Position numbers and translations under genes: made by a program. This document shows positions 3,018-61,878 of a stretch of 64,000 nt of DNA, one piece after another; position 1 is the first letter of the stretch, and each line of letters opens with the position of its first letter. Location: NCBI GenBank assembly GCA_035510735.1, contig DATKGN010000003.1, positions 14,208 to 78,207 on the forward strand, written 5' to 3'. This DNA comes from Patescibacteria group bacterium (lineage in GTDB: Bacteria > Patescibacteriota > Microgenomatia > UBA10105 > UBA927). The notes beneath the pieces were generated by a model that was not told the DNA's origin, did not search any database, and was given only the letters and a program-made list of their open reading frames with translations.

Positions 3018-3074
3018 GGTTTTCCTAAGAATATCACATTATATCAACATGCACGTGCTATAATCCGACGTACT

Positions 3075-4190: not shown

Positions 4191-4236
4191 ATGTCTATGA
4201 GCATTATACTCATTATGTCCATCCGGGGATGATATC

Positions 4237-4551: not shown

Positions 4552-4668
4552 AACGAATTATTTTCATTATAACACGGTGAACAAACGTTGAAGCAACAGT
4601 ATATATATTGTAGCTGAGGTATTTTCCAATTATTATGAAACATCCCGTTCATACGATATAATCCCCCT

Positions 4669-5187: not shown

Positions 5188-5382
5188 GGAATTATATGAT
5201 ATGTCAATTCGTACATGTCGAACGTGGTATGGGCGGAAGTGCCATTGATGTTCGGATAAAAAACAGTACGACCCGTTCCGGGAAATACAATAAACTTGGA
5301 ATAATTTTCTAGCTACGATTTTCCCGTCCTGCATTGCTTATGAACGTATGACCTATTATTTGACGATATAGTGTTACCAAAT

Positions 5383-6818: not shown

Positions 6819-6906
6819 CCCCTAGGAGACCATATACGAACCTGGTTTGGTTCAAATCAACAGCAAGCGGAGATATTGAAGGTAGTATATAAGTACTTAG
6901 CTATTT
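6819..6906 (+). repeat. Array repeat copy 1 (variant CCCCTAGGAGACC...)
   Basis: This copy starts with cccctaggagaccatatacgaacctggttt and ends with tatataagtacttagctatttag. It was aligned by eye to the other five copies. Confidence 0.75.
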
Positions 6907-7020
6907 AGGTGCCTCCAAATTACAGAATAAGTTTATTCATGCTCTTTGGATTTGACAGCTCACCGATTGCGACGTACTATCGGACCAAAATAAGGTATCG
7001 AGGTATATTTCACGAAATAT

Positions 7021-7503
7021 ATGGTCAATCTGGAAAACGATAGCGCTGCCCAAGAGGGTTCAGTGACCTCAGAGCCGCTACACCAGCTTTCTAATGAGGC
7101 AACACAACTTATTGATCTGGCGATGAGCAAGGTGAGAAAAGGGTCGATAGGCACAGATGGGAGCCAAACGGTTTTTCTTAGGCATGGGCGCCATCTCTAT
7201 AGAATTACTGACGAACAGGTAGAAGTGGAAAAGGTAGGACCAATTGTCACAGCTGTTCATTCCAAAGGATCGTTACGTTCTGGATTACATGTGGTGATAA
7301 TTGCTGACGAACCAGGCGGTTATTTTTTTAGCGTGGATCTACCTCGAAGTAGTAAAGAGAATTTCGATGAACAGGAGCTTCATCAACTCGGAGAAAAATT
7401 ATATCCCCATAGTACGGTTCATCTCACCGCAGCGCAGATAAAAGAAACTAAAAGAACAACAAAGGCAAATTGGGAAAGAGTGCTCCGATCCCCTTGGTAT
7501 TAG
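7021..7503 (+). CDS. Hypothetical protein (array gene 1)
   Basis: 160 aa ORF, followed by repeat copy 2. Confidence 0.45.
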   Translation: MVNLENDSAAQEGSVTSEPLHQLSNEATQLIDLAMSKVRKGSIGTDGSQTVFLRHGRHLYRITDEQVEVEKVGPIVTAVHSKGSLRSGLHVVIIADEPGGYFFSVDLPRSSKENFDEQELHQLGEKLYPHSTVHLTAAQIKETKRTTKANWERVLRSPWY

Positions 7504-7555
7504 CATTGGTGATCTGTGCGATAAAAGCTTTGCTTTTTGAAGCTAATTCAAGTAA

Positions 7556-7645
7556 CCCCTACGAGACCATATACGAACCTGGTTGAGGGAAAATCCTAGA
7601 GATGGTGAGTTGTTACAAGTGTCATATAGGTTTTTAGCTTTTTAA
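7556..7645 (+). repeat. Array repeat copy 2
   Basis: cccctacgagaccatatacgaacctggtt, then atataggtttttagctttttaa at the 3' end. Confidence 0.75.
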
Positions 7646-7826
7646 CAAATATTTTCTCGTTGGAACCAGCTTCTAGCCTCAATAAGAACATGGAAAGCAC
7701 TATTTGAACCTAGCCTCAACCCAACATGGTGTATAACTACCAATTAGGATTAGAATTATGACTATTTTTTAAAATATGCTTAAATAATATTATGGTTGGA
7801 TCTAAAATGCGAAGGATATAGAATAT

Positions 7827-8273
7827 ATGGTAATGAAAAACATTGTGTTCGCTGTAATTCTTAGTTTAATATACTTTCTTCCTGAGTTATTAACGTTGCA
7901 GCTAGGAAGTGTCATCACTGCGTTTACAAACCCTGCAATATTAGCTCCTCAAGCTGTCACGCAAATATATACGGAAGCCACATTTTTTCTAATTTCTATA
8001 GTCTTAATATTGGTAAATATATATCTTGCGAAAAGCAAGAAAGAAATTGCTCGCTATATGACGTATATTTTTGCTGCTCCACTCGTTGTAATGAGTCTTA
8101 TCGGGATTTACTTAGTCATTACGTTGATGCAGTTATTGTTGCAAAATAGACTCAGTGAAGGAATACTTACCTTTATGATGTTGATTTCATTCGACTTTTT
8201 TGGCCTTTTGGGAAGCTATGTGTATTTCTTTTTGATTCACCACAAAGTAAATAATGAACTAAAAAGAAAGTAA
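7827..8273 (+). CDS. Hypothetical membrane protein (array gene 2)
   Basis: 148 aa with about four transmembrane helices. A TATAGAAT -10-like box lies 3 nt upstream of the ATG, which suggests a leaderless transcript. Confidence 0.5.
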   Translation: MVMKNIVFAVILSLIYFLPELLTLQLGSVITAFTNPAILAPQAVTQIYTEATFFLISIVLILVNIYLAKSKKEIARYMTYIFAAPLVVMSLIGIYLVITLMQLLLQNRLSEGILTFMMLISFDFFGLLGSYVYFFLIHHKVNNELKRK

Positions 8274-8300
8274 GACCGCGCCAAATTGAGGCTGAACGAC

Positions 8301-8390
8301 CCCCTACGAGACCATATACGAACCTGGTTTGCTGAAAATAGACAAGAAGCGGAGATTTTGAGGGTGGTGTATAGATTATTGGTTATATAA
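8301..8390 (+). repeat. Array repeat copy 3
   Basis: cccctacgagaccatatacgaacctggtttgctgaaaat, then gtgtatagattattggttatataaa at the 3' end. Confidence 0.75.
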
Positions 8391-8443
8391 AATACCCCAA
8401 ATTTTACTTTGAGTGCTATAATTAGCCTGTCAATATAACCCAT

Positions 8444-9154
8444 ATGCTAAAACCGGAAGATTTTGAAAGAATGTTACGTAATCGACCTCAACAAGTAGGC
8501 GTGGAGAGGACTGAGCTTGAGTCTTATAGTAAACAACAAGAAGTTACGTACAATCAAAATGTTTTGTCAAAACAATTACAAGAGGCACAGGCAAAGGCGG
8601 ATTTGTTGAAATGCCAGACGGATTTAATTAAAAAATTTTATCAGGAAGCAGGAATCCAACAACGCATAATAACAATAGCATCATTAATTTCAGGAGGAAA
8701 AATCATTACAGATCGGTCACTTGATGATTCAAATATAACTTTGAATATTCCTTATCACTCGTTTACGGGTCGAATGATTATTCATGACCCATCTATGGAT
8801 AAGTCATACTCTTCATTCGGCACTATGCAAAGTGGCTCAAGTTCTTTACGTGAGGAAGGACAAAAGTTAAGCGCCCCAACTACCTTACATGATAGAATCT
8901 ATGTGAATATTGACTGCTCTATTCAACCGAATCCACTTCGTTTATACTTTAAAGTATGGCACATGCAGTGGCAACAAGAGAAAATGACTAACACAGGAGC
9001 AATTTTTCATCGTACTGGGTGGGTTGAACATGGAATCGGAGGTAGGGATTGGGTTTTTTCGGAAAACGAATGGCTTGGACCAGATGGATGTCTTGTTGAC
9101 GCAGCTTTTACTGACGCTTATGACAGTTATTTAGCTATAACTGGGCAAATTTGA
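8444..9154 (+). CDS. Hypothetical protein (array gene 3)
   Basis: 236 aa ORF. An extended -10 box TGCTATAAT lies at 8414-8422. Confidence 0.5.
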   Translation: MLKPEDFERMLRNRPQQVGVERTELESYSKQQEVTYNQNVLSKQLQEAQAKADLLKCQTDLIKKFYQEAGIQQRIITIASLISGGKIITDRSLDDSNITLNIPYHSFTGRMIIHDPSMDKSYSSFGTMQSGSSSLREEGQKLSAPTTLHDRIYVNIDCSIQPNPLRLYFKVWHMQWQQEKMTNTGAIFHRTGWVEHGIGGRDWVFSENEWLGPDGCLVDAAFTDAYDSYLAITGQI

Positions 9155-9176
9155 TTCCCTATTTAGCCTCAAGTAT

Positions 9177-9265
9177 CCCCTACGAGACCATATACGAACC
9201 TGGATGAGCCTCAATAGATCAGAAGGGGAGTTGTTGAGTGCCTCGTATAGATTGTTAGCACTTTA
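9177..9265 (+). repeat. Array repeat copy 4
   Basis: cccctacgagaccatatacgaacctggatgag, then cgtatagattgttagcactttag at the 3' end. Confidence 0.75.
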
Positions 9266-9428
9266 GCAACTTTTTCACAATTTTACACCGTTTAGGCTAC
9301 TACATAAGTTTAATTGTAACTAGAATTACCGTGTTAGGGTCTTCAGCTTGATAATATTGGGAACATGTATAGAAACGAGTTATGGTCTGTAATTTGAATG
9401 TCATATAGACTTATAGTATAATTAACTT

Positions 9429-20073: not shown

Positions 20074-21642
20074 CTACATTTGGTCAGCGATTTTTATCGC
20101 TTCATTGATACGTTGTTCCATATGTCGTAAAGTCATGTTGTAAGGCATTGATTCTTCGAGCATCGTATAAAACCTTCTATTTATCCAATCTCTCTGGAAC
20201 GAGCTTGAAGGCCAACTAAATTCAGCGACCTCTAATTCAAGAATTTTTCTGTATAATTTCATACAAAAAGATTGGAGTTTGCTAGGTGCTAAAAGTGGAG
20301 CAATGATAGACAACGCCATTTTGTCGTCCAGGGTATGTGGATTTAGCTGGAGTATTCGCATAATATATTTCTTGGCTTCTACAGGGTTAATTTGGCTGTT
20401 TTTTAATTCAGAAAGCGTATCCGACTGATCAGCCAATGAAAACCAAGTAGTTATGTGACGGAGGCCTTTTGTAATAGTCGGCGATTCTCTGAAACCAACG
20501 ATTTTCATCGCATGATCAAGTCTCTGATTTAGTTGCTCATTTGTGATTCCTGAAGGAGCCGTAGCTATTATTTTCTGCTGAAAAATTTTCTTTGTTTCCT
20601 CTAATCGAAAATTTCCGGGTTGTGTATATTCAGCCATTTCAAGCTCAGTTACTAAGCGTGAAAGTATTGCACCCTGAGCAAATTTATACCCGGTGTGTCG
20701 ACGCACTGAAAGGAGCTTTTGTGTCATTACATCATATTTACCCAATTCACTGGATATGTTTGATAAAGAATCAGAAAGTCTTAATGCATCTATCATTTCG
20801 TGGACTTTATAGTCATCTTTTATATTTTTTATACCCTCGGTGATGGCAGCAGCACTTAACGCAACAGCAGCTGCCAATGCAGTATTTGATGCTATTTGAG
20901 CATATTCGGGGTAATGTTTAGATGCTAATTCCATTGTCATATATAAACCAATTACAGTAGAATTCCATAATGAATGGGATAGAATAGAGCGTTTAATTCC
21001 ACCCTCAGCTGCAAGCTTCGTTTGGAACGATGCCCATAGAAATTTTGAGAGAAACGGGGCATTCACAAACTGGTATGACTTCCAGGTTAAGTCAGAAATT
21101 GAAGACACAACTTTATCACTTATAGGTAGAATTTTACCGAATGGTTCGGCATCTTTAGGATTATGCCCAGAAGCAAACAGCGTGTTTACATAGTATCTCC
21201 CGTATGCAGGGTATAGTTCTTTTTCAGAACCTAATGTTTTAACAAGAAAGTCAGCGGGTAGTCCACGAAACACAAACTCCTCTATTAAAGGCGCGGTAAC
21301 GATAGCTTGTAAAATTATAGTGTATTGTTGGGCAGTGAGATTCAGGTCGATAGCGGAGGCCGTTATTGCAGTTAAGCCTAATCCGATGGTGAGCCCAGCT
21401 ATTCGTCCATATGTATCCATACTTGATGTATTTTGTTTAAATTCAGAAGGCGCCGCGAGAGTCAGCTCTCTGGCCATATCTCGTGCTCTGTCCATAAATT
21501 TGTCAATCACATCGGCGGGTATTTGATTTGTTAATCTATCTCGTTTGGAATGTAATAGGTCTTCGAATTCTATGAGCGCATTCGGTTCAGGATTTATGGC
21601 ATTTTGAGGTTCTCGTAGCGTACTTTTATCGAGATTGTTCAT
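20074..21642 (-). CDS. Hypothetical protein: N-terminal CPBP-type (CAAX protease-like) membrane domain fused to a roughly 300 aa unknown domain
   Basis: Motif 1 LIEEFVFRG, plus a HSLWNS motif and transmembrane segments. The C-terminal two thirds have no match I recognise. Confidence 0.45.
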   Translation of the reverse strand: MNNLDKSTLREPQNAINPEPNALIEFEDLLHSKRDRLTNQIPADVIDKFMDRARDMARELTLAAPSEFKQNTSSMDTYGRIAGLTIGLGLTAITASAIDLNLTAQQYTIILQAIVTAPLIEEFVFRGLPADFLVKTLGSEKELYPAYGRYYVNTLFASGHNPKDAEPFGKILPISDKVVSSISDLTWKSYQFVNAPFLSKFLWASFQTKLAAEGGIKRSILSHSLWNSTVIGLYMTMELASKHYPEYAQIASNTALAAAVALSAAAITEGIKNIKDDYKVHEMIDALRLSDSLSNISSELGKYDVMTQKLLSVRRHTGYKFAQGAILSRLVTELEMAEYTQPGNFRLEETKKIFQQKIIATAPSGITNEQLNQRLDHAMKIVGFRESPTITKGLRHITTWFSLADQSDTLSELKNSQINPVEAKKYIMRILQLNPHTLDDKMALSIIAPLLAPSKLQSFCMKLYRKILELEVAEFSWPSSSFQRDWINRRFYTMLEESMPYNMTLRHMEQRINEAIKIADQM

Positions 21643-29394: not shown

Positions 29395-30708
29395 TTACTT
29401 TTTGAACGTGATCCAAGAGTCGTTGGTTTCGATAGCTGATGGAACAGACCGGTTAATTACATTTTGAATACGGGAAACACTTGACTGCACTGAATTTTCC
29501 CTCACTCGATTTAGAATGAGAGAAAGTTCTTGAACGAGTGGGACCTCCGGGCCAGTATAATCTCCTATATGGTTAGTCAATAGAATAGCTATAGCGTCTT
29601 TCACATCTCTCTCACGGGTATCAAAGTTCACTGCTCTCAATAAATTTGAATTATGTTTTGACATAAGTTCCAAGAGGCTTTTAAGTTGACCCGTGGAGGT
29701 GCGGAGAGTATTGTCATTGGGCGTCTCGCCGGGCATGCAGGTTAAATATCTAATGATTGGCAACTTCCTGGCTTCCCGAATTTCCTCTAATACCCTTTCA
29801 CCGTTATTTCTTCGGTAGTCCTGAAAAGTCCCGTTTTGTTTCAAATAATCTATTAAATCTCTCTCTACCGCGTCGGCCTGTGATATTTCTTGATTTGTCA
29901 TGGATGCAACGACTGAGGCTCGATACAATTCAGTTAATTGAGTAAATTGTTGTTCATCAAAAATGGGGATTGCTTCAAAATCCATAAACGTTAACCCATC
30001 GATTTGCCTGGTAGATCCGGTATCAACAAAACGTACTTTATCGTTAAACTGCCAATCCTTATATATAAATCCGTTTGCCAATACGTGCGTAAAGGAAAAA
30101 AATCTTAGAGCTAATAGGCGCATATAATTTTCAGCTGATAAATCATCTACGTTGACAATTTCAGAGGGTTCTTCCCAGTCATCTTTAAGCATAAGGATAT
30201 TTCTGCCGTCGGCAAGACGCCCGAATTTTATGAATTCAGGAACTCCCGGCATTCCTTGATTTGATAAAATTGACCGCGCCTCTCTTTCTATCTTTTCATT
30301 CATTTCATGATTAACTGACCCCCGCTCGGTTGCAACACGAATTATAGAAGTTTCGTCGCTATTTGCACGCTGCGCGCGCCATATCTGCTTTTCTCGTGTA
30401 TTAGATAATGGTACTGGACCTGTCACCCAGTCGTTTCCTTCTAGATTAAAAATTTGACCCGCCAATACTCCGCTATCCTTGCCTGTGAGCTCAGCTGCAA
30501 GATTCTGTGGTAATAAAAAATCTGCGAGTCCCCCCTGAGGTTGAGATAGGTACATCCGATTTCCTACTACACTCGCAAATTGTATAGGTAAAGTGCCTTT
30601 CGACTGAATAGACCAATCAGTCTCAGTTGAAGTCTGTGGCCCGACGAGATATAGCCTGTGTTGGCTTTTGAGATTATCTGTCGTGATTGCTAAACCTGCT
30701 TCGTTCAT
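29395..30708 (-). CDS. Hypothetical protein with a possible protein-kinase-like catalytic motif
   Basis: 437 aa. The segment HVLANGFIYKDWQFNDKVRFVDTG resembles an HxD...N...DxG catalytic loop, but the match is weak. Confidence 0.45.
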   Translation of the reverse strand: MNEAGLAITTDNLKSQHRLYLVGPQTSTETDWSIQSKGTLPIQFASVVGNRMYLSQPQGGLADFLLPQNLAAELTGKDSGVLAGQIFNLEGNDWVTGPVPLSNTREKQIWRAQRANSDETSIIRVATERGSVNHEMNEKIEREARSILSNQGMPGVPEFIKFGRLADGRNILMLKDDWEEPSEIVNVDDLSAENYMRLLALRFFSFTHVLANGFIYKDWQFNDKVRFVDTGSTRQIDGLTFMDFEAIPIFDEQQFTQLTELYRASVVASMTNQEISQADAVERDLIDYLKQNGTFQDYRRNNGERVLEEIREARKLPIIRYLTCMPGETPNDNTLRTSTGQLKSLLELMSKHNSNLLRAVNFDTRERDVKDAIAILLTNHIGDYTGPEVPLVQELSLILNRVRENSVQSSVSRIQNVINRSVPSAIETNDSWITFKK

Positions 30709-30802
30709 AACCTATATTCTATCCTTGTCAATTTCTATATGCAAACTACATCAACAGGTTTTATTACTTGAAAATCGAGCTGTGGAATGTCAGAATGTAC
30801 AA

Positions 30803-31432
30803 ATGTTGGAACTTATTGGCTCGTGGATTATCCATTTTATCTCCTCTTTGGGCTACCTTGGTATATTCCTTCTCATGACGCTTGAATCAGCGCTTATCCC
30901 CATCCCGTCTGAAGTCACCATGCCGTTCTCGGGGTCGCTGGTTGCCCTCGGACAGTTTAATATTTGGTTCGTTGTGGTCGCTGGGACACTCGGAAATTTG
31001 TTTGGGTCGCTTCTTGCGTATTTCTTAGGGTATTGGGGGGAAGAATCGGTTGTGCGGCGCTTAATCGTCAAATACGGAAAATATCTTCTTATCAGTGAGC
31101 ATGAGTACGATCAGTCTGAGCGATGGTTTCGGGTTCACGGCGAACTCATTGTCTTACTTTCCCGCGTATTGCCGGTACTCCGCACATTCATTTCGCTTCC
31201 AGCCGGTGTTGCCAAAATGAAGCTTCCGAAATTCATCGCATATACCGTGATAGGGTCCTTCATCTGGTCATACGTTCTCACGGAATTAGGAGTTGTACTC
31301 GGAAATCACTGGAATTCCATTGGTGGGTATTTTCACAAATTTGATATCGTTATTGTAATCGCTGGTGTATGCGTTGTTGCTTGGTATATCTGGCACAAAC
31401 TCAAACACTTCAAAAAACCCTCAGTTTCGTAA
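30803..31432 (+). CDS. DedA family (SNARE-associated) membrane protein
   Basis: LGYLGIFLLMTLESALIPIPSEV...VLPVLRTFISLPAGV. The internal start MLELIG was preferred to avoid an antisense overlap. Confidence 0.75.
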   Translation: MLELIGSWIIHFISSLGYLGIFLLMTLESALIPIPSEVTMPFSGSLVALGQFNIWFVVVAGTLGNLFGSLLAYFLGYWGEESVVRRLIVKYGKYLLISEHEYDQSERWFRVHGELIVLLSRVLPVLRTFISLPAGVAKMKLPKFIAYTVIGSFIWSYVLTELGVVLGNHWNSIGGYFHKFDIVIVIAGVCVVAWYIWHKLKHFKKPSVS

Positions 31433-31529
31433 AGCAATCCATAAATCCATCGTTAAGTGCCATCCGCTGATATTTGGTGACATGAGCTTTTTAATAATTA
31501 ATTAGAAAGAGAGTGTTATAATTCGAGAA

Positions 31530-31880
31530 ATGAAAGTGCCTTATGCCAAATTGGCTTATGTTCCCCGTGAAAAACCTAAAGACAAAATTGAAAATTACCT
31601 ATTGAGTCTGGCAAATCCTCACTCAAGACCAAGAGCACTATTTTTTCGTTCTAAGGGTTTTAGCGAGGCGAACATGAATCTTTTTGAGCGTCGCTTGTTA
31701 CAAATAATTCAAAGAAATGATGTAACAAATACAGAACATTCACAATATGGTGAAAAATATATCGTCGATGGTGTTATAGAGACACCTATAGAGAACTCTA
31801 TTTCGCTAAGAACGATGTGGATTGTGGACAATAGGAAGCGCAAGCCCAAATTCGTCACCGCCTTCCCACATCGTGTATAA
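31530..31880 (+). CDS. DUF6883-like protein
   Basis: The pattern IENYLLS..PHS..RALFFRSKGF ... LRTMWIVD....PKFVTAFP matches my recollection of DUF6883 proteins. The local region is AT-rich. Confidence 0.55.
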   Translation: MKVPYAKLAYVPREKPKDKIENYLLSLANPHSRPRALFFRSKGFSEANMNLFERRLLQIIQRNDVTNTEHSQYGEKYIVDGVIETPIENSISLRTMWIVDNRKRKPKFVTAFPHRV

Positions 31881-31903
31881 TATGTAAAAGGAAGAGGATA
31901 TTT

Positions 31904-32206
31904 ATGTTTGAAGAGCTTAGTTCAGTTACGCTTACACATGATATACCTACGCATAACCTTTCTAAGGGAGATGCGGGTACTGTTGTGCATGTATATGCTA
32001 ATGGAGAAGGGTATGAAGTTGAATTTTTTAACTCAATGGGCGAAACTATCGCTGTTTTAACTTTAAGCCCAACTGATCTACTTGCTGTGCAGACTAATTC
32101 TGTGGTTAAGTGGATCGAGCCAATATGGGATGGAATGACGTCACCGCCATCTATAGCAAACAATGCTGATAAAGTGGTGACGAGAATGTTTTATAGTCAA
32201 TTATGA
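31904..32206 (+). CDS. DUF4926-like small protein
   Basis: VTLTHDIPTHNLSKGDAGTVVHVYANGEGYEVEFFNSMGETIAVLTL matches the DUF4926 signature. An RBS GGAAGAGGA precedes it. Confidence 0.6.
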   Translation: MFEELSSVTLTHDIPTHNLSKGDAGTVVHVYANGEGYEVEFFNSMGETIAVLTLSPTDLLAVQTNSVVKWIEPIWDGMTSPPSIANNADKVVTRMFYSQL

Positions 32207-32667
32207 AAATTCAACATATTTGGTCAGTATTATGTAAAGAAAGCATTATTAATCAAGACGATAATGTTATTTCGCTAATTGGTATTCTTGAGGATATTAA
32301 TTCCACAATAACTCCTTTAAAAGCGGATACTCCTAGACCAGAAAAGGTTACTATCCCTTTTAATTTTGAGGTGGTAAGTTATTGGACCAAAGATTCAACA
32401 GAAGAAGTAAAGATACTGATAAAGACTACAATGATTGATCCTGAAGGTAAAGAATTGGCAAACGATATTAAAGAATTAGTATTCCCAGCTAACACTAAAA
32501 GATTGCGAAGCAGGTTAAAAGTTCAAGGCTTATCTGTGACTAATAGTGGAGACTACTCAGTTAGAATCAGGTTGAAAATTGCTGAAGAAAAAGAATTTAA
32601 ATCTGTTACCGAATTGCCTATAAGTGTCAAAATACAATTTGCTGAGTTGAAGGCTCCGTCTAACTAA
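32203..32667 (+). CDS. Hypothetical protein, translationally coupled to the DUF4926 gene (ATGA overlap)
   Basis: 154 aa ORF in the AT-rich islet. Confidence 0.45.
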   Translation: MKIQHIWSVLCKESIINQDDNVISLIGILEDINSTITPLKADTPRPEKVTIPFNFEVVSYWTKDSTEEVKILIKTTMIDPEGKELANDIKELVFPANTKRLRSRLKVQGLSVTNSGDYSVRIRLKIAEEKEFKSVTELPISVKIQFAELKAPSN

Positions 32668-32836
32668 ATTATCTTCTTAAGCATAATTTGCTTCATATTT
32701 TATACAGTTAGTTAATTGGTTGTAGAATACTTTTTGTTACATTGCACTTGAAAACTTAGATATTCATTATTCACTATTGGAGTAAGTAAAAAGATTGAAA
32801 CTACAAGATAGTCCTAACTTATGAATCCAGTACCTT

Positions 32837-33460
32837 CTAGACAAACTTCCTAATTAACCCTACTACTTTTCCCTGTATCTTTACGTGTGTGGTGAAGATG
32901 GGAGACATGGTGGCGTTTGCGGGCATGAGTTTGATGCGGTCCTTCTCGAAATAAATGCGCTTGAGGGTGGCGAGACCGTTCGGGAGGAGTGCTACGACGA
33001 TATCGCCGTTTTGAGCATCCTGCTGATGCTGGATGACCACATAATCTCCGTCCATGATGCCGTCATCGATCATGGATGTGCCTTTGACCTGGAGAATATA
33101 GCTTGGCTTATTGGATGAAATCATGCCGGGAGCGACAGACATATAGAAATTCGGATCTGTATACGGTTCAAGAGGGCTTCCGGCTGCAATAAATCCGAGT
33201 ACCGGCAGTTCGACAGCCGTTGTGCCTTTCCCTGTACGGTAATTTGCCTCAACGATTTCAAGGCCGCGTGCCGTGCCATCAAGTTTGTTAATGAATCCCT
33301 TTTGGCGGAGGCGGTCGATGTGTTCGTGAACCGTTGCCGGAGAATTCATACCAAGCGCAGTGCCTATCTCTTTGAGCGTCGGGGCGTATCCGTAGCGCTG
33401 AATAAATTGTGTGATAAACTCTAGAAGTTGTCGTTCTTTATTGTAAAGTGTAGCAGGCAT
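32837..33460 (-). CDS. lexA: LexA repressor (S24 peptidase)
   Basis: N-terminal winged HTH LTQRQ-like segment ...LKEIGTALGMNSPATVHEHIDRLRQKG; catalytic Ser in KGTSMID; Lys in LKR. Confidence 0.85.
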   Translation of the reverse strand: MPATLYNKERQLLEFITQFIQRYGYAPTLKEIGTALGMNSPATVHEHIDRLRQKGFINKLDGTARGLEIVEANYRTGKGTTAVELPVLGFIAAGSPLEPYTDPNFYMSVAPGMISSNKPSYILQVKGTSMIDDGIMDGDYVVIQHQQDAQNGDIVVALLPNGLATLKRIYFEKDRIKLMPANATMSPIFTTHVKIQGKVVGLIRKFV

Positions 33461-51402: not shown

Positions 51403-51540
51403 TTTATAAATGATAGGTCGACCGTTCAAACTAGCAAGACTTCAACAATCTTAATGGCAAGCACTGAACTTCTCGAAGAACTGCCAAGCTAGGATTCCAT
51501 TCCTCGCGTCGCACAGATCCCCTCCTGCGAGGGGCCTGAG

Positions 51541-51611
51541 CTGGGAGACTAGGATTCGGACCTAGATACCAAGATCCAAAGTCTTGTGTCCTACCCTTGG
51601 ACGATCTCCCA
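51541..51611 (-). tRNA. tRNA-Gln (anticodon UUG) with an unusual T-loop UCCGAAU
   Basis: Hand fold: acceptor TGGGAGA/TCTCCCA with discriminator G, D-arm GTCC-AAGGGTA-GGAC, anticodon arm CAAGA-CTTTGGA-TCTTG, T-arm CTAGG-TCCGAAT-CCTAG. Confidence 0.65.
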
Positions 51612-51740
51612 GCTCAAACCCCAGCTCTGGCGGGCGGGCAAAGTCTGGCGTGTTACTCCACCCAAGCTGGATTAACTGACGGTAATCCTCTCATTCAGCC
51701 AACTGATCGCAAACTGTCAGTTGAACGTTACACCACCCGG

Positions 51741-51792
51741 CAATAAAAAAGCTATCAGACTTCAGTCACCAACGATCAGTTATCTGATAGCT
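51741..51792 (-). terminator. Hairpin plus U-tract terminator downstream of tRNA-Gly(GCC) on the minus strand
   Basis: The inverted repeat AGCTATCAGA (51750-51759) pairs with TCTGATAGCT (51783-51792). On the minus strand the hairpin is followed by TTTTTTATT. Confidence 0.45.
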
Positions 51793-51819
51793 GAAAGCTA
51801 ATAGCTGATAGCTTCTTAG

Positions 51820-51891
51820 AGCGGGCGACGAGAATTGGACTCGCTACCTTCTCCTTGGCAAGGAGACATTCTACCGGTGAACTACGCCCGC
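51820..51891 (-). tRNA. tRNA-Gly (anticodon GCC) with T-loop UCCAAUU
   Basis: Acceptor GCGGGCG/CGCCCGC with discriminator U, anticodon arm TCTCC-TTGCCAA-GGAGA, T-arm GCGAG-TCCAATT-CTCGT. Confidence 0.65.
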
Positions 51892-52458
51892 AAAATAATT
51901 TTCTACGAAAATTTTCTGCGTAAACGCTGATATTATACCAGTGTTTACACCGAAAAAATCGAGAGATTTTATTCGGTGCCGAGACTAGGAATTGCACCCA
52001 GATAACGTGTTTTTCAGACACGCACCTTGACTACCTCGGTCATCTCGGCTAACTTGACTATCCCTCGAAAACTCGGGACTTCTGAAACCTCAGCCTCGGT
52101 CATCTCGGTCCATCAACGCGCTTCTTTTCCTCAGGGCAAGCAAAATGCTCAAATCCTAATTCGACTAAACCTAATGGCAATTATACGGTAAATGGTGGCT
52201 TTTTGTCATCAGGCTTCATGCGCAGTGACAAAGATTGAATATAGTTCCGCCTTTTGAGTTTTTCCATCAACTTATTCCTGTTGTTTGGAATTACTCAAAT
52301 AATAAATTCATACAGGGAATTATTGTTAAAATAGAAGTGTTATGCCCATGGATCAAATCTCAAAAATAATTATTCTTATCACATTCATTCAAGGTTTAAA
52401 TATACATATATACGGTAGCCGTCGCACATAAATTTGTTGTATACTGAATTTTTCTGCC

Positions 52459-52689
52459 ATGAAACATTCAACAACGAGCCGATCTGTCGTAAAAACCATC
52501 GTTTATCGCTTTCTTATCATTTGTTCTGACGGTATTATCATTTACGCCTTAACACATAAAGTAGTACTAACCCTCAGCGTTATTGGTTTGTCGAATATTG
52601 CAAGTACGCTTCTGTATTTCTTGCATGAGCGCGCATGGTCAAGGATTACCTGGGGGCTCTCCAAAAAGAGATTAAACGTAACAAAGTGA
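52459..52689 (+). CDS. DUF2061-like small membrane protein
   Basis: 76 aa with two transmembrane helices; the C-terminal LLYFLHERAWSRITWG matches the DUF2061 signature. Confidence 0.5.
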   Translation: MKHSTTSRSVVKTIVYRFLIICSDGIIIYALTHKVVLTLSVIGLSNIASTLLYFLHERAWSRITWGLSKKRLNVTK

Positions 52690-52694
52690 TTTTG

Positions 52695-52767
52695 TGGACG
52701 ATGAGGGACTCGGACCCCCGACATCTTCAGTGTAAATGAAGCGCTCTACCAGCTGAGCTAATCGTCC
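52695..52767 (-). tRNA. tRNA-Val (anticodon UAC) with T-loop UCCGAGU
   Basis: Acceptor GGACGAT/ATCGTCC with discriminator A, D-arm GCTC-AGCTGGTA-GAGC, anticodon loop TTTACAC, T-arm GGGGG-TCCGAGT-CCCTC. Confidence 0.65.
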
Positions 52768-52864
52768 TTTCGATATCGCTATATCTCTGAATATGCGATA
52801 ATGAGCACACTCTATTGTATTCGAAATTGTTATTTTGAACAATATTTATTACAATAGGCAGCAC

Positions 52865-52946
52865 GCGGACGTGGCGGAATTGGTATACGCGCAGTCTTGA
52901 GGAGGCTGTGCCGCAAGGCATGGAGGTTCAAGTCCTCTCGTCCGCA
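52865..52946 (+). tRNA. tRNA-Leu (anticodon GAG)
   Basis: Long variable arm TGCCGCAAGGCA, anticodon loop TTGAGGA, T-arm GGAGG-TTCAAGT-CCTCT, acceptor GCGGACG/CGTCCGC. Confidence 0.8.
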
Positions 52947-53034
52947 CAAGAGGAGATGGCACCATTGTCAAAGGTGCAAATTGATTGATATAACGGGCTA
53001 ATTTGATGGTTCAAACGAGAAGAAATACCCAAAT

Positions 53035-54153
53035 ATGCTAGAACGATTGGTTTGGGCGGAAATTAACGTCAGAAACTTTCTCTACAACATCTCCTGTGTG
53101 AAAAAGATTGTAGGCTCCCATGTAAAAATAATGGCCGTCGTCAAAGCAAATGCATACGGACATGGTGCCGTCGAGCTAGCAAAAGTGGCGGAAAAATTTG
53201 GCGTTGATTATTTTGGGATTGTTTGCTTGTATGAAGCGAGACAACTTCGCGAAGCGGGAATACATACACCGATTCTCGTCCTCAATTACATTGATGAAGA
53301 AAGCGTGGAAGCGTGCGTTGATTTAAATGTTACGCTCAATGTCATGGACGAAAAGCTCCTTTCGCGACTAGACAAGGTTGCGCGAAAGAAAGGTAAGCGA
53401 GTCCCCATCCATGTCAAAGTAGACACTGGGATGCACCGATTAGGGCTGCAACCCGAGGAAGCACTACGCTATATTCCAAAAATAGAACAGTACAAAAATA
53501 TCAAATTAGAGGGCGTGTTTACTCATTTTGCAACGTCAGATGAAAAGAACCTGTCTTTTACCTATTCACAGCTTAAGACGTTTAACACTCTTCTATCAGC
53601 CTTAGCAAAAAACGGTGTGCGTGTACCGATCGTTCACGCCGCGAACAGCGCAGCGACTCTTCGCGTGCCGAGTGCTCATTATGATTTAGTCCGCCCCGGC
53701 GTTATTTTATACGGACTGGCGCCATCTGGTGATTTTCCTCTGCCATTTATACCAAAACCTGTCATGGCTCTCAAAACAAAAATTGTTCAACTTCGTCAAA
53801 TCGCTAAAGGCGAAACGGTAGGTTACGGTCGAACATTTACTGCAGTCAAACCAACGCGCGTCGCTTCCCTCCCGGTGGGCTATGCCGATGGCTTTCGCCG
53901 TGCACCGAATAACTGGGGAAGTGTTTTAGTAAACGGTCAATTTGCACCGTTAATCGGCAGAGTTTCAATGGATCAATCATCAATTGATGTCACAGCCATT
54001 CGCGCCGCTCGCGTAGGGGATGAAGTCGTATTAATCGGGATACAAGGAAAACACCTATTGACGGCGGAACTGGTTGCCAAAACGCTCGGTACCATTAATT
54101 ATGAAGTTACCAGCGCAATTGCTTCCCGTGTCTCGCGCGTGTACTTTTTGTGA
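53035..54153 (+). CDS. alr: Alanine racemase
   Basis: PLP-Lys motif AVVKANAYGHGAVE; a C-terminal beta domain. Confidence 0.9.
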   Translation: MLERLVWAEINVRNFLYNISCVKKIVGSHVKIMAVVKANAYGHGAVELAKVAEKFGVDYFGIVCLYEARQLREAGIHTPILVLNYIDEESVEACVDLNVTLNVMDEKLLSRLDKVARKKGKRVPIHVKVDTGMHRLGLQPEEALRYIPKIEQYKNIKLEGVFTHFATSDEKNLSFTYSQLKTFNTLLSALAKNGVRVPIVHAANSAATLRVPSAHYDLVRPGVILYGLAPSGDFPLPFIPKPVMALKTKIVQLRQIAKGETVGYGRTFTAVKPTRVASLPVGYADGFRRAPNNWGSVLVNGQFAPLIGRVSMDQSSIDVTAIRAARVGDEVVLIGIQGKHLLTAELVAKTLGTINYEVTSAIASRVSRVYFL

Positions 54154-54292
54154 ACGTTACTATGCGTTTGTGCCCGGAGGGAGACTCGTCCCAGAAGTAT
54201 CTTTCCGCCTTTGGCGGATTAGAACTTCGGGATCCCGCATTCTACGCCCAGTTTACTGGGCAAGAATTGCGGGAAACTCCAAAACGACTCTG

Positions 54293-54378
54293 TGCCCAGA
54301 AGAGGATTCGAACCTCCAAGGGATTTTACTCCCACTAGCTCCTGAAGCTAGCGCGTCTACCAATTTCGCCATCCGGGC
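54293..54378 (-). tRNA. tRNA-Leu (anticodon CAG)
   Basis: Acceptor GCCCGGA/TCTGGGC, anticodon arm CTAGC-TTCAGGA-GCTAG, long variable arm, T-arm GGAGG-TTCGAAT-CCTCT. Confidence 0.8.
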
Positions 54379-54431
54379 ATGAGGCTATTATACCATTACC
54401 GCTTTGCAGAACGAGATGTTAACTATAGGTC

Positions 54432-55097
54432 TTGTTTCACAAAACCCTGCGAGGTAGAATAGCCAGTACCAATAAGCCGTTATCAATTTCTCCTATGGGT
54501 AGAACAAAAATAAATACGATTCTTCAACCGGATGAACAATCGTGCGGCCCGGTTTCCTTAAAACATGCACTTGAAATTTTGGGCAAACGAAAATCGATTT
54601 CAACACTCTCAAAACTCTGTAAAACTTCACGGAACGGGACAGCGACGAAAAATATGATTAAAGCGCTCAACGGTTTGGGGTATTCAGTACTCGCCGTCGA
54701 GCGGGCAACACTTCGCCATCTTATCTCTTCGCTCCGCTATCAACCAAATAAGCCAAGGGCCGTCATTGTCGATTATCTATACAATCTGGAAAATACCCAT
54801 GATGAACCGTCATGGGAATCCGGCCACTGGGCAACTGTGTCGTCGTTTAGTGCCAGTAACAGTAAGATTGTGTTATTTGACGGATATTCAGGGACTAAGA
54901 AATCCTATCACTGGCAGGATTTCCGTAAACGTTGGGTAGATTACGACGTCATGAAAAAGAAAGTGTCACCACGGTCAAAAAAATTCAAATCCTTCCGCAG
55001 GTGGAGAAAGCAACTCTTGCTTGTTATATCTTCGGATCCAAAACATCTACCGAGGTTCCGCTATTCCTCATCGGCGATATATCCTGGTGTTAATTAA
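54432..55097 (+). CDS. Papain-like C39-family-type cysteine peptidase domain protein
   Basis: QPDEQSCGPVSLKHAL carries the Cys; GHWATVSSF...IVLFDGYSG carries the His. The N-terminus is basic. The real start may be the internal MGRTK. Confidence 0.45.
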   Translation: MFHKTLRGRIASTNKPLSISPMGRTKINTILQPDEQSCGPVSLKHALEILGKRKSISTLSKLCKTSRNGTATKNMIKALNGLGYSVLAVERATLRHLISSLRYQPNKPRAVIVDYLYNLENTHDEPSWESGHWATVSSFSASNSKIVLFDGYSGTKKSYHWQDFRKRWVDYDVMKKKVSPRSKKFKSFRRWRKQLLLVISSDPKHLPRFRYSSSAIYPGVN

Positions 55098-56118
55098 TGG
55101 AGTTTTGGACAATCTGAAGAACGAAATCCTCAAGTGTCATGCCGTGTGCCCGTATTGACGCAGTCATGGCATCCCGCGGGTCCGGATCAAAACCGGCGTT
55201 TGCGTTGCCCTCGAGGAAAAACCATGAGTGGATGTCCGGATTATACCGGAGATCAAACCGGCCGTAATCACGCATCCCGAGGGCGTAGAATGCCCGTATG
55301 GCGTCACGTTTTATCTGAACGTCGATATCCGTATTTAAACGCTTAGGAGGGGCCTTAAAATAACAACTTTTATAGACTGGCAGGTGTTTACTCCATTTTT
55401 CATCAAACCCGTAAATGTTCCATTTATTTTTCACGTGACCCTTGAATGCAATTTCTGCAATAGGCAATGCGACCGTTTTATTGGGAGTCTCCAATATGGT
55501 TACCTGCAGTTCCTTACCGGGAATAAATTCCTCGGCGATGAGCGTTTGTTTGTGTTGCTTCCGCAGCCGAGTGACGATTGATTTAAACTGACGGTAGTTT
55601 TGTGCGATGGATCCGTTCGTTATACCGATACTGCAATGTTCATATGCGGGCTTAATAATAACAGGATATTTACTAGGCAGTAAGGATTTTCTAATTCGGT
55701 CTCTTAATTTAATAATTGAATATCGCGGGGTCGGTAATAAATTTTTTTCAAATAGTTTTTTTGATTTAATTTTGTTATTTGATGCTTTAATGCCGTCAAG
55801 ATCAGTACCTGAATGCGGGATGTGAAGACGTTTGAGGATTTTTGCAATCTGAATTTCCATCGCTTTGCTGTCCACGAGGTTAAACACAAAATTGGCTTTT
55901 AATTTCTTGAGTTCTGACAAGTCTTCCGGGCTCACTTTTATAATCTGAACGTTATATCCTTCCTGCAAAAACAATTTACGCATGTAGTGCACTATTTCAT
56001 CCGTCTGGTTGTCTACAAGCGTATGTTCTTCACTGAAGTATTTTGCGGCAATATTCTTTGGTACGTAATGATATAAAAGCGCAATGGTTTTTTTTCTTTT
56101 GTGGGCAATTTTTTTCAT
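55090..56118 (-). CDS. ATP-grasp ligase of the D-alanine--D-alanine ligase family (divergent paralogue)
   Basis: Ddl-like architecture; an ATP-grasp core with EEFIPGKELQVTIL; a C-terminal YGRFDLRY...FFLEGNANAGF segment. Confidence 0.6.
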   Translation of the reverse strand: MKKIAHKRKKTIALLYHYVPKNIAAKYFSEEHTLVDNQTDEIVHYMRKLFLQEGYNVQIIKVSPEDLSELKKLKANFVFNLVDSKAMEIQIAKILKRLHIPHSGTDLDGIKASNNKIKSKKLFEKNLLPTPRYSIIKLRDRIRKSLLPSKYPVIIKPAYEHCSIGITNGSIAQNYRQFKSIVTRLRKQHKQTLIAEEFIPGKELQVTILETPNKTVALPIAEIAFKGHVKNKWNIYGFDEKWSKHLPVYKSCYFKAPPKRLNTDIDVQIKRDAIRAFYALGMRDYGRFDLRYNPDIHSWFFLEGNANAGFDPDPRDAMTASIRAHGMTLEDFVLQIVQNSIN

Positions 56119-56192
56119 TGATATCTCATAAGAGAATTATTTCGGGTACATGTTCATTAATGATGATTTTGAAACATTTGTCAAGTATTCGA

Positions 56193-57230
56193 TTATAATT
56201 GCGTATGATATCGGACAAGTGCTTCCTTGAGAATACGCTCAATAATATCCGTGTAGGACATGGACAATGTCTTTGCAATGGTCCCGAAGGCATCCTGTTT
56301 TGATAGTGCAGGAAGTGGGTTAATCTCCAGAACATATGGTTTGTTATTTTTATCCACTCGAAAATCTATACGCCCGAAATCCCTGCTGCCCACCGCTGTA
56401 TATGTTTTTATCGCGAAGTCCCTAATCAAATCGGCAAGAGCCGGCCGCAGGTCTGCGGGACAGCAGTAGTGTACGTCACTTGAATAGACGTAACGGCCTA
56501 CATAAATTTTATCGTTCACCGGTTTATTTCTGATAAGGATTTCAACAATAGGGTAGGCTTGTATGGTGTCTCCGTTGCCGATAACTGCGACTGTGCACTC
56601 ACGTCCCTCAATAAACTCCTCAACAAGCGCAGGTTGATCGTACAGTGAGGTGATATGATTAATCTGATCATTTAACTCATTGAAATTCTTTACTTTTGAT
56701 TTTGCGGTCATTCCCTTTGATGATCCCTCCCATTGGGGCTTCACAATGAGTGGAAATGGTAAGTCCGGCATATCATCACGTTTCATCGGTTTTGTTGCAA
56801 CGAAAAATTTGGGAGTAGGGATACCATGAGCTGCGAGGATTTCTTTCGTGATAACTTTATCAAGTGTCAGACTCATGGTTAATGCGTCAGATCCGACATA
56901 CGGAATTCCGAAATACTCAAGAACGAGCGGTATTTGTGCTTCACGATTCCTTCCTTGTAAACCTTCTGCGGTGTTAAAAATGATGTTCACATGTTGCTTT
57001 ACTGCGTCCACATGTTTGAGAAGGTTGCTAAAGTTGCCTATGTCGTAAACGGTATAGCCGCAGCGCTCAAGACTTTTTTTAATCCCTCGGACGATGGTCA
57101 CATTATCGAATTCGCTGTATTTATCCGGAGGATCACCGGCCGTTAGCGTATAATCACTTGCAATATCGTACGTAAGTCCTACCGTTATTGAAGAACTTTT
57201 CGCTTTCGTTAGTTTCGTTTTCATATCCAT
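56193..57230 (-). CDS. ddl: D-alanine--D-alanine ligase
   Basis: Ddl motifs FPLIVKPQWEGSSKG, EEFIEGRECTVAVIG and GRIDFRVD...YVLEINPLP. Confidence 0.75.
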   Translation of the reverse strand: MDMKTKLTKAKSSSITVGLTYDIASDYTLTAGDPPDKYSEFDNVTIVRGIKKSLERCGYTVYDIGNFSNLLKHVDAVKQHVNIIFNTAEGLQGRNREAQIPLVLEYFGIPYVGSDALTMSLTLDKVITKEILAAHGIPTPKFFVATKPMKRDDMPDLPFPLIVKPQWEGSSKGMTAKSKVKNFNELNDQINHITSLYDQPALVEEFIEGRECTVAVIGNGDTIQAYPIVEILIRNKPVNDKIYVGRYVYSSDVHYCCPADLRPALADLIRDFAIKTYTAVGSRDFGRIDFRVDKNNKPYVLEINPLPALSKQDAFGTIAKTLSMSYTDIIERILKEALVRYHTQL

Positions 57231-57418
57231 AGTTCACCATATCATATGCACGATATACCGTACAGATGATACAATATGCATAGAGAATCTTGACCGGGGT
57301 GACGAAATGCTCAAGCCGACAGTTAACGATCCGTCGACTGACGGAGAGTCTTAGTGTTGCTTAGTCCCGCCAAGCGGGAGTATACGGTCTTACGATGATA
57401 AAATAGGTTGACAATAAA

Positions 57419-57503
57419 GCCGGGGTGGCGAAATGGTATACGCGCAGGACTTAAAATCCTGTGGTGATTAAACACCGTGTGGGTTCGAGTCCCACTCTCG
57501 GCA
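57419..57503 (+). tRNA. tRNA-Leu (anticodon UAA)
   Basis: Acceptor GCCGGGG/TCTCGGC, anticodon arm CAGGA-CTTAAAA-TCCTG, long variable arm GGTGATTAAACACC, T-arm GTGGG-TTCGAGT-CCCAC. Confidence 0.8.
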
Positions 57504-57504
57504 C

Positions 57505-58512
57505 ATGAAGAAGAAACAATTCCCATATCTTGAAATCAATGGAACACACAGGGATATTGGGCGGGCTATTGGTGAAACATTTCGTAATCAGATTACTTCA
57601 CGTATCGACAAGCGAAAGCAATTCATACAAAATTACAATACATATATTCAATCAACGTACCCGTACTTTATCGCGACACTCAAAGCATTTCCTCAGTATA
57701 TTGATGAGATTACCGGGGTTGCACAGGGCGCACGAATTTCAGTTACAGATTATTTTTTCTTAAATAATCCCGAAGTTTATCCTGATATTGATGATATAGA
57801 CGGAGGCGTCATTCATGAACATTGCACAACAGTCGTAAGCCGTAACGAATCCGGACTTACCATCGGTCATACGGAGGACTGGTTCTCACAGGGAATCGAT
57901 GACCTTTTTGTGTTAAAGGCTACGGTCTGCGGAACAACTTTTCTCTGTCTTGATTATGCGTCATTCATATCCGGTTCTTCCGCTTCCTTGAATTCCTTCG
58001 GTATTGCTCAATGCATAAACGATCTTCATAGCCATTCCGGAGTCGGAATACCCGTGTATTTTGCTGCCCGTGGTGTGCTCGAATGTCGCACACTTAAAGA
58101 TGCCGAGAATTTACTTCGCCGCAATCGTTGGGCATCGGGATTCAATCACGTTCTCGGACAGGGGCGTACGATCTCTGATATTGAGTGCACAGCTCAGGCA
58201 GTTGATGCGAGCTATATTCAATCAGATATATACGCACATACAAATCATTTTTTATCTCCCCGCATGCGGCAATATGAATCCATGCGGTCTGAAAGTTCAG
58301 TCGCGCGGTATATGCGTGCTTCAAGTCTCGTTACGTCGGGCATGCGGTTTTCTGATATTCAAACCATAGTATCTGATACATCAAATAAACAATTTCCCAT
58401 CAATAAACCTGACGAAACAATAGCTGCGGTTATCATTGAACCCACTAAACGAACACTTTCCGTATGCCGTGGCCGCCCGAGTGAAGGCACATTTGTTTCG
58501 TATACCCTTTAG
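57505..58512 (+). CDS. Peptidase C45 family Ntn-hydrolase (acyl-CoA:6-APA acyltransferase-like)
   Basis: HEHCTTVV (putative N-terminal nucleophile Cys after autoprocessing) ... HTNHFL; the overall pattern is similar to isopenicillin-N acyltransferase-like proteins. Confidence 0.55.
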   Translation: MKKKQFPYLEINGTHRDIGRAIGETFRNQITSRIDKRKQFIQNYNTYIQSTYPYFIATLKAFPQYIDEITGVAQGARISVTDYFFLNNPEVYPDIDDIDGGVIHEHCTTVVSRNESGLTIGHTEDWFSQGIDDLFVLKATVCGTTFLCLDYASFISGSSASLNSFGIAQCINDLHSHSGVGIPVYFAARGVLECRTLKDAENLLRRNRWASGFNHVLGQGRTISDIECTAQAVDASYIQSDIYAHTNHFLSPRMRQYESMRSESSVARYMRASSLVTSGMRFSDIQTIVSDTSNKQFPINKPDETIAAVIIEPTKRTLSVCRGRPSEGTFVSYTL

Positions 58513-58566
58513 TTTCTGCTACAATAAGTAGGCTCGGGTCGCCTCATAGGGGACCCACAGAAGAGG

Positions 58567-58640
58567 CGGGACGTAGTTCAGTTGGCTAGAACGCACGCTT
58601 TGGGAGCGTGAGGTCGGCAGTTCAAGTCTGCCCGTCCCGA
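58567..58640 (+). tRNA. tRNA-Pro (anticodon UGG)
   Basis: Acceptor CGGGACG/CGTCCCG with discriminator A, anticodon loop TTTGGGA, T-arm GGCAG-TTCAAGT-CTGCC. Confidence 0.85.
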
Positions 58641-58671
58641 CATATTTTCTAGAATAATTGGTTATCAATTC

Positions 58672-60154: not shown

Positions 60155-60158
60155 CTCC

Positions 60159-61190: not shown

Positions 61191-61274
61191 AGGGTGTAGT
61201 ATATCCTCTTTCTTGTTCCATTCAAAAATGATTGTTATAATCCGGTAAGCAGAAGATTAAAATATTCTGCTTGC

Positions 61275-61350: not shown

Positions 61351-61357
61351 ATCAATT

Positions 61358-61828: not shown

Positions 61829-61878
61829 GTTTAGACTAATATTACTGCCTATGTTCCAACCTGATATAATATTTATGT

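Follow-up and report, generated by a model that had tools for sequence, protein, structure and literature searches.

What does a small, AT-rich islet of three genes encode, and how did it come to lie between dedA and lexA? We address this question for positions 31433-32836 of a 64,000-nucleotide stretch (hereafter, the window) of contig DATKGN010000003.1, from the metagenome-assembled genome of a Patescibacteria group bacterium. The three genes, which we call A, B and C, are all on the forward strand: gene A (31530-31880) encodes a DUF6883 protein of 116 amino acids (aa), gene B (31904-32206) a DUF4926 protein of 100 aa, and gene C (32203-32667) a protein of 154 aa. An earlier note, made before any database search, had described a compositionally distinct islet with a good ribosome-binding site before a DUF4926-like gene and a translationally coupled 154-aa reading frame, and measurement bears out each of these features. 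The GC content of 31433-32836 is 0.348, lower than in any other 1.4-kb segment of the whole stretch (mean 0.441, standard deviation 0.031), and GC at third codon positions is 0.26-0.34 in the islet genes against 0.47-0.54 in dedA, lexA and uvrB. Inspection of the sequence locates a strong Shine-Dalgarno element for gene B, GGAAGAGGA, at 31890-31898 on the forward strand, and the stop codon of B overlaps the start codon of C in an ATGA at 32203-32206. The explanation that we put forward, and to which we give about even weight, is that the islet is a tripartite toxin-antitoxin (TA) cassette in which C would partner the C-terminal tail of B and act in the manner of toxin-antitoxin-chaperone (TAC) systems.

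The main evidence for this reading is the genomic company kept by C. A search of a C-family alignment against GTDB genomes and JGI metagenomes, together with loci collected earlier, yielded 57 loci with a full-length C gene, mostly from Patescibacteria (Daviesbacteria, Shapirobacteria and Saccharimonadales); a small set of groundwater and lake metagenomes supplied many of these loci, which thus lack independence, and some of their genome labels are questionable. Upstream genes were clustered, with Pfam searches on cluster representatives as confirmation. An antitoxin gene lies directly upstream of C in 55 of the 57 loci, and belongs to DUF4926 in 26 loci, to the helix-turn-helix (HTH) family HTH_3/XRE in 21 and to DUF2283 in eight. 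In the two remaining loci, the gene at this position is an unclassified singleton (L021) or the upstream sequence is too short to tell (L062). The second gene upstream of C encodes DUF6883 in 20 loci, Gp49 (PF05973) in 19 and, in six, a protein of ~95 aa that belongs to no Pfam family and gives one weak hint of PBECR3 (E 0.024). Gene A occupies the position of Gp49/HigB-type toxins in sister cassettes, and gene B that of HTH and DUF2283 antitoxins. The antitoxin stop and the C start share a 4-nt ATGA overlap in 35 of 43 unique cassettes, including 20 of the 20 of the DUF4926 type. Profile alignment with hhalign found no similarity of DUF6883 to the Gp49 and ~95-aa toxin clusters, or of DUF4926 to DUF2283, so that the three types of cassette have toxins, and likewise antitoxins, that are unrelated in sequence. 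C is thus a third component common to at least three TA-type pairs, and by position A corresponds to their toxins and B to their antitoxins. The Chloroflexota locus with the unclassified upstream gene (L021, 3837-5450) has C preceded by two genes that overlap each other, of 172 and 213 aa and without a Pfam match, which may represent a fourth partner type.

Gene C also changes partners. The C protein of one Gp49-HTH cassette (L053) is 89% identical to that of a DUF6883-DUF4926 cassette (L051), and the nucleotide identity between the two loci (88.8%, L051 1775-2255 versus L053 2997-3477) extends from 4 nt ahead of the C start codon to the C stop codon. Homology limited to the C reading frame implies a precise exchange of this single frame, and C thus moves as a discrete gene. 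In another locus (L022, 5450-8712), several genes lie 3′ of a Gp49-HTH-C cassette, among them one for a 375-aa protein with an N-terminal motif that by eye resembles cytosine methyltransferases; this could be a defence-island context.

The antitoxins linked to C differ from their relatives at the C-terminal end, where they carry an extension of 35-90 aa that two-gene homologues lack. DUF4926 proteins measure 98-139 aa with C and 72-80 aa in two-gene modules without it; HTH antitoxins measure 139-179 aa with C (a range that leaves out a 110-aa frame in L016, truncated at the 5′ end of its contig) and 97 aa in a C-less pair; and DUF2283 antitoxins with C measure 95-135 aa, the Pfam model comprising 49 positions. 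The C-less HTH pair provides a natural internal control, for it resides in a locus (L017) that holds both a Gp49 (124 aa)-HTH (145 aa)-C cassette and, at 7094-7680 on the minus strand, a toxin-like (98 aa)/HTH (97 aa) pair. In the window, the DUF4926 domain is confined to residues 4-59 of B, and alignment with two-gene DUF4926 proteins delimits an extension of residues ~61-100 (32084-32203, forward strand) that we propose as a docking tail for C.

Tails of the DUF4926 type and many of the HTH type, borne by two unrelated antitoxin folds, have a motif in common, ...[IV]x[TS]ESKxSKAE..[FY]x[YF][QPS]x[ILV]-COOH, exemplified by KSKAKTEEYNYQSI and LKSKADTEEFRYPTAII among DUF4926 tails and by ESKESRAEANRFYYQTL and SKKSEIKTNNFYYQSI among HTH tails; B in the window ends in ...KVVTRMFYSQL. 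Hidden Markov model (HMM) searches of tails across families gave only sub-significant matches (E 0.4-9), located at the extreme C-terminus, and an enrichment test with a regular expression and a position-specific scoring matrix was used in their place. The regular expression for the terminal part of the motif matches 10 of 20 DUF4926-type and 6 of 16 HTH-type tails, as against 0 of 6 DUF2283-type tails, 0 of 27 stand-alone DUF4926 proteins and 5 of 1111 background reading-frame ends. The motif is enriched ~80-fold over background (Fisher p 1.3e-9 for HTH tails versus background), with a p value that overstates independence because the motif-bearing HTH sequences are related. A matrix trained only on DUF4926 tails places 9 of 16 HTH tails above the 99th percentile of the background, and across TA types the identity of C proteins correlates with the similarity of tails (Spearman 0.26, permutation p 0.005). 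These data establish that C is strictly coupled in its genomic setting to antitoxins of three families, that tails and C are correlated, and that a tail motif is held in common.

These results bear on the simplest competing account, under which the islet holds an ordinary two-gene DUF6883/DUF4926 TA system, C is an unrelated hitch-hiker 3′ of TA operons and the extensions are coincidental linker. We regard it as quite improbable, since C follows antitoxin genes in all but two of its loci, mostly with the 4-nt overlap, extended antitoxins go together with C in each of the three families, the tail motif is strongly enriched over background, and C evolves under strong purifying selection, with a ratio of nonsynonymous to synonymous substitution rates (dN/dS) of 0.08-0.09. 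A hitch-hiking gene would nonetheless suit the existence of C-less DUF6883-DUF4926 modules in other phyla, the exchange of the C frame precisely on its own, and the variability of the tails, which differ even between near-identical C proteins.

Tripartite TAC systems are the paradigm for a third protein that gates a TA switch and senses phage, and to our knowledge all examples use a SecB-like chaperone. They consist of a three-gene operon whose antitoxin is lengthened at the C-terminus by a variable extension (ChAD) that is absent from two-gene homologues, and a single chaperone family serves several TA families (PMC5105189). We compared the cassettes with HigB1-HigA1-SecB(TA) of M. tuberculosis, HigBAC, MqsRAC, HicAB-SecB and CmdTAC. 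Both groups have the order toxin, antitoxin, third gene, translational coupling, and an antitoxin extension present only with the third gene; in the cassettes, too, one family of third proteins serves several pairs (DUF6883/DUF4926, Gp49/HTH and ~95-aa protein/DUF2283). The Gp49/HigB plus HTH type further uses the toxin family of M. tuberculosis HigB1, Gp49 being an established family of BECR-fold toxins of the RelE/ParE superfamily, with toxin-first order, that includes this TAC toxin (PMC11980606). The cassettes differ from TAC in that C is a predicted DUF6941 immunoglobulin-like (Ig-like) sandwich and not a SecB homologue, in that their tails end in [FY]x[YF][QPS]x[ILV]-COOH where TAC antitoxins have Trp/basic SecB-binding motifs, and in that their hosts are mostly Patescibacteria. 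Given that C lacks homology to SecB, the cassette is an analogue of TAC and not a member.

On the reading that we favour, A would act as the toxin and would most likely be a small ribonuclease of BECR-like type; we infer both its toxicity and its ribonuclease chemistry. A conserved extended -10 promoter would give rise to its leaderless, poorly translated message. B, provided with a strong ribosome-binding site, would be the antitoxin that binds and neutralises A, and its tail of ~40 aa, absent from plain two-gene DUF4926 proteins, would be the site bound by C. Being translationally coupled to B, C would control antitoxin folding or stability through this tail, and if C were titrated away or lost, B would be inactivated and A released, as in TAC. 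A stabilising, chaperone-like effect of C on the antitoxin is favoured over a destabilising or sensing one, because of the analogy with TAC and of the 1:1 coupled expression of the two genes.

The earlier note had left the 154-aa protein without any assignment. In addition to being the most informative part of the islet, C is not a wholly unknown protein: its own match to Pfam DUF6941 (PF22091; E 1.3e-4, 22.8 bits) falls below the cutoff of 27, and it is, judged by its homologues, a divergent DUF6941 member, because 48 of 52 members of its family match PF22091 at E<=0.01 (best E 9.5e-8). Invariant residues of the family include H5, W7, C11, D20, N21, E30, E56, R102, R104 and Y118. An AlphaFold2 model of C, with a predicted local distance difference test score (pLDDT) of 88, is an all-beta sandwich of nine strands with no helix. 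We considered a SecB-like identity for C and ruled it out on this all-beta prediction and the lack of a SecB Pfam match. Fold matches to C in the PDB are Ig-like sandwiches, namely the Wzt carbohydrate-binding domain, UNC119, RhoGDI and PDE6-delta, at template modelling (TM) scores of about 0.5 (0.45-0.52 for the last three). RhoGDI, PDE6-delta and UNC119 capture a terminal peptide of their client; they are, in contrast to C, eukaryotic and lipid-dependent, they have no sequence similarity to it, and the likeness may reflect only the generic Ig-like fold. The best viral fold matches in BFVD are A0A2P1JU14 (Anoxybacillus phage A403), A0A2H4JCJ7 and A0A8S5TTK3, phage proteins without a characterised function that are similar in size to C, at 134-165 aa (E 6e-8 to 8e-7, TM up to 0.69/0.79). 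Given this structural proximity, the models suggest that DUF6941-like proteins may be phage-encoded too. By sequence, no relatives of C or A were found in viral contigs or phage genomes, and none of C in plasmids.

The same partnership between C and the tails could be put to a different use. C might be an adaptor or trigger-binding module, with the tail acting as a degron-like tag that is passed to a protease, or being held until a phage protein competes for C, so that C sets the threshold of activation. The genomic evidence fits such a sensor equally well, and the tails end in hydrophobic or aromatic peptides (...ENYAI, ...IAAL, ...YYQTL) that resemble the recognition tags of proteases and adaptors, as in ssrA/SspB. 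The closest viral fold matches of C are, moreover, phage proteins, and the chaperone is the phage sensor in known TAC, according to a preprint (bioRxiv 10.1101/2024.02.24.581848) and to a further report (PMC11980606). We still hold this account to be unlikely: the top PDB matches of C include neither SspB nor ClpS nor other adaptors, no such protein is matched by sequence either, no defence-system model matched, and the tight 1:1 coupling with the antitoxin is what one would sooner expect of a stoichiometric partner than of an adaptor that acts catalytically.

For the two genes upstream of C, HMM searches upheld the assignments that the earlier note had made without them, and the domain identities are established. 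A matches DUF6883 (PF21814) with 79.2 bits (cutoff 27; E 3.4e-22) over profile positions 12-109 of 110, and B matches DUF4926 (PF16277) with 76.9 bits (cutoff 29.1; E 7.7e-22) over positions 1-55 of 57. An AlphaFold2 model of A, built from seven sequences, consists of helices followed by a four-stranded sheet (pLDDT 60.6), and its top four Foldseek matches in the PDB are chains A, C, E and G of 6cp9 (E 4e-3, TM 0.46), a CdiA-CT toxin/immunity complex of Klebsiella. The model agrees, short of proof, with a BECR-type ribonuclease: A has in common with BECR-fold ribonuclease toxins (the RelE/ParE superfamily and CdiA-CT tRNases) its small size, a predicted layout of helices preceding a four-stranded antiparallel sheet, toxin-first order and a CdiA-CT complex as best match. 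It differs from them in its lack of sequence or profile similarity, in the low confidence of its model and in the loss of the conserved His from A of the window. A 2026 preprint on BECR ribonucleases (bioRxiv 10.64898/2026.08.28.747851), the only paper found to name both families in a relevant setting, mentions DUF6883 six times and DUF4926 twice. Neither sequence nor profile searches of the PDB with A, B or C returned anything meaningful, and scans of the three proteins with NCBIfam and PHROGs gave no matches.

The CdiA-CT match is also what would be expected if the islet were an orphan polymorphic-toxin/immunity cassette, with DUF6883 the C-terminal remnant of a secreted toxin and DUF4926 its immunity protein. 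The makeup of the DUF6883 family renders this far-fetched, however. Its 1165 cluster representatives at E<=1e-3 are nearly all stand-alone proteins of ~110 aa, and among the best 150 representatives nearly all are stand-alone and of ~104-125 aa, with a few longer proteins (up to 272 aa) whose N-terminal extensions contain no Pfam domain, which argues against the tip of a polymorphic toxin. There are likewise no secretion or delivery genes nearby.

Adjacent DUF6883 and DUF4926 genes recur, as the earlier note had stated, and we found two-gene pairs lacking C in an Ignavibacteriae genome (L026), in locus L028, on the Nitrosococcus plasmid pNHAL01, near a RelE/ParE toxin gene, and on Cy782202, a plasmid of Gloeothece, where an IS701 transposase gene is the neighbour. 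These modules have in common with the window both Pfam families, in the same order and in close apposition, on plasmids as well as chromosomes; they differ from it in their tail-less DUF4926 proteins of 74-80 aa, in having no third gene and in belonging to other phyla (Ignavibacteriae, Gammaproteobacteria and Cyanobacteria), and their RefSeq annotation is of DUF proteins only. Like type II TA systems, the pair is made up of small, adjacent, co-directional genes and is recurrent, with a patchy, mobile distribution. One homologue of B (P0068) fuses the N-terminal half of CopG_antitoxin (PF12441, E 4.8e-8) to DUF4926.

We must also weigh the possibility that no TA system is involved, and that DUF6883, DUF4926 and DUF6941 form a non-toxic accessory complex, for instance in RNA or stress metabolism, in which DUF6883 of the window is catalytically inert. 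The replacement of the near-invariant His29 by Asn and of Tyr112 by Phe in A of the window would accord with inertness, as would the lack of a significant sequence link to characterised toxins and of a PADLOC match with a non-toxic role. The His-lacking subclades of DUF6883 (N/D-x-[DE]-G) are themselves conserved, however, and the pair is positionally interchangeable with Gp49-HTH, an established TA system, before the same C family. Its plasmid copies lie beside other TA genes and an insertion sequence, another copy belongs to an island with Zeta and Fic genes, its distribution is patchy and mobile, its composition is foreign, and a CopG_antitoxin-DUF4926 fusion exists. On balance, a non-toxic complex strikes us as very unlikely. 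The suggestion of a toxin-antitoxin-like or phage-defence role in the earlier note survives in its first half, which fits the comparative evidence; no PADLOC model speaks for the second.

The relatives of the islet bear on how it arrived. Sister three-gene blocks occur in other metagenomic contigs with A proteins of 62-82% identity and unrelated neighbourhoods, and four of them (L008, L009, L010 and L025) keep the lengths of 116/100/154 aa and the spacing of the genes in unrelated contexts. Alignment with blastn delimits the mobile cassette as the promoter and genes A, B and C (31493-32667, forward strand): the match to L009 (72.7%) spans 31493-32667, beginning 37 nt before the A start codon and ending at the C stop, that to L008 (80.3%) runs from 31490 up to the end of the L008 contig, and that to L010 covers 31506-32635, with unrelated sequences flanking the cassette in these three contigs. 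Purifying selection acts on each of the three genes (dN/dS 0.09-0.28 for A and 0.10-0.28 for B, in addition to the value given above for C). Recurrence in unrelated contexts and purifying selection on A, B and C together show that the cassette is a horizontally mobile unit. The mobile or addiction module of the earlier note is upheld to this extent, by recurrence as a unit, foreign composition and the fit of a TA-like reading, and loses its proposed connection with lexA. A search around the cassette found no flanking direct or inverted repeats, att-like sites or nearby tRNA gene. In L009, the cassette (A 66% identical) lies in an island of conflict genes (79-5219), in which an SNase gene and a Zeta_toxin gene preceded by a small gene come before the cassette and a gene for a Fic-domain protein comes after it. 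Cassettes with identical reading frames occur in contigs labelled Saccharibacteria and Cyanobacteria UBA9579 (L015, L016, L063 and L064), and several metagenome-assembled genomes with cassettes of the candidate phyla radiation type are labelled 'uncultured Gammaproteobacteria'; these labels are probably binning or labelling errors.

Several observations weigh against a tripartite TA cassette with a TAC-like third protein. On the side of the toxin, A has a low-confidence model with a marginal top fold match, no toxin that is known or of solved structure turned up as a relative of DUF6883 in profile searches, and the hhalign comparison with the Gp49 cluster was negative. In the broad DUF6883 family, K19, Y23, H29, G32, K35, W97, T110 and P113 are near-invariant, and A of the window carries H29N, G32S and K35R (each at a position at least 90% conserved), as well as Y112F (81%) and R107K (74%). 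H29 is replaced by Asn or Ser in A of the window and its close relatives, and in the rest of the DUF6883 proteins linked to C the His is retained or the N/D-x-[DE]-G variant is present. Since near-invariant residues of the family are replaced, A of the window could be attenuated. On the side of the third protein, C is not SecB-like and matched only generic Ig-like folds (TM about 0.5). Tails of the DUF2283 type, and roughly half of those of the HTH type, lack the motif or show it only weakly, the motif-bearing HTH sequences are related to one another, and L051 and L053, with near-identical C proteins, have rather different tails. Finally, PADLOC-DB 2.0 defence models gave no match to A, B or C at E<=1, and a search of relatives for an empty site came up with none: the cassette is present in every contig that has an identical LexA and reaches far enough.

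A broader claim, which we advance more tentatively and rate at somewhat below even, is that DUF6941-like beta-sandwich proteins constitute a second class of dedicated antitoxin partners, chaperones or sensors, unrelated to SecB. 'Chaperone addiction' would then have arisen independently in Patescibacteria, a portable tail ([FY]x[YF][QPS]x[ILV]-COOH) would tie antitoxins of at least three unrelated folds (DUF4926, HTH-XRE and DUF2283) to one exchangeable gene, and DUF6883/DUF4926 would be a new TA family. If true, the addiction of antitoxins to a helper would be a convergent design principle and not a peculiarity of SecB. It would further provide working hypotheses for three families, DUF6883, DUF4926 and DUF6941, and a compact system from uncultivated Patescibacteria, whose conflict systems are poorly known, with predictions that lend themselves to direct tests in E. 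coli. No papers came up in literature searches for DUF6941, PF22091, PF21814 and PF16277.

The expression signals of the cassette are compatible with a TA system. An extended -10 promoter-like element, TGTTATAAT (31514-31522, forward strand), sits 7 nt before the A start codon; the ATGnTATAATT block is identical across four diverged cassettes, and the sequence further upstream is not conserved. A generic promoter scan missed this element because a -35 element is absent. No Shine-Dalgarno sequence was seen before gene A on inspection. The proximity of the extended -10 to the A start codon and the lack of a Shine-Dalgarno suggest that the mRNA of gene A is leaderless or near-leaderless and weakly translated, with gene B well translated, and a weak first gene followed by a strong second one would correspond to the usual arrangement of toxin-first TA operons.

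The surroundings of the islet add little to this picture. The reading-frame list and Pfam identify the left flank as dedA (VTT/DedA family; 30668-31432, forward strand), and the right flank is lexA (32837-33460). Being encoded on the minus strand, lexA runs toward gene C, so the islet lies beyond the 3′ end of lexA and not upstream of it, as had been supposed, and the lexA promoter points toward uvrB. No LexA-box-like palindrome was detected that the cassette promoter would have in common with the intergenic region of lexA and uvrB. With convergent genes, no palindrome in common and no regulatory link found between them, the adjacency to lexA, which had seemed suggestive, is without visible meaning. 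Upstream of dedA, in the same context in all contigs of the population, lies a 437-aa reading frame (29395-30708, minus strand) that belongs to no Pfam, NCBIfam or PHROG family and has a weak PADLOC match to PD-T4-6 (E 6e-4, residues 108-173). Of the 12 tRNA genes of the window, 11 fall within 51540-63830, in its last 12.5 kb, and bear no relation to the islet. Other stretches of low GC content (0.35-0.385) occur at 6850-9300 and ~20400-20600, with reading frames of 148-236 aa and, in the second stretch, a 522-aa frame at 20074-21642 on the minus strand; they may hold other foreign or orphan genes.

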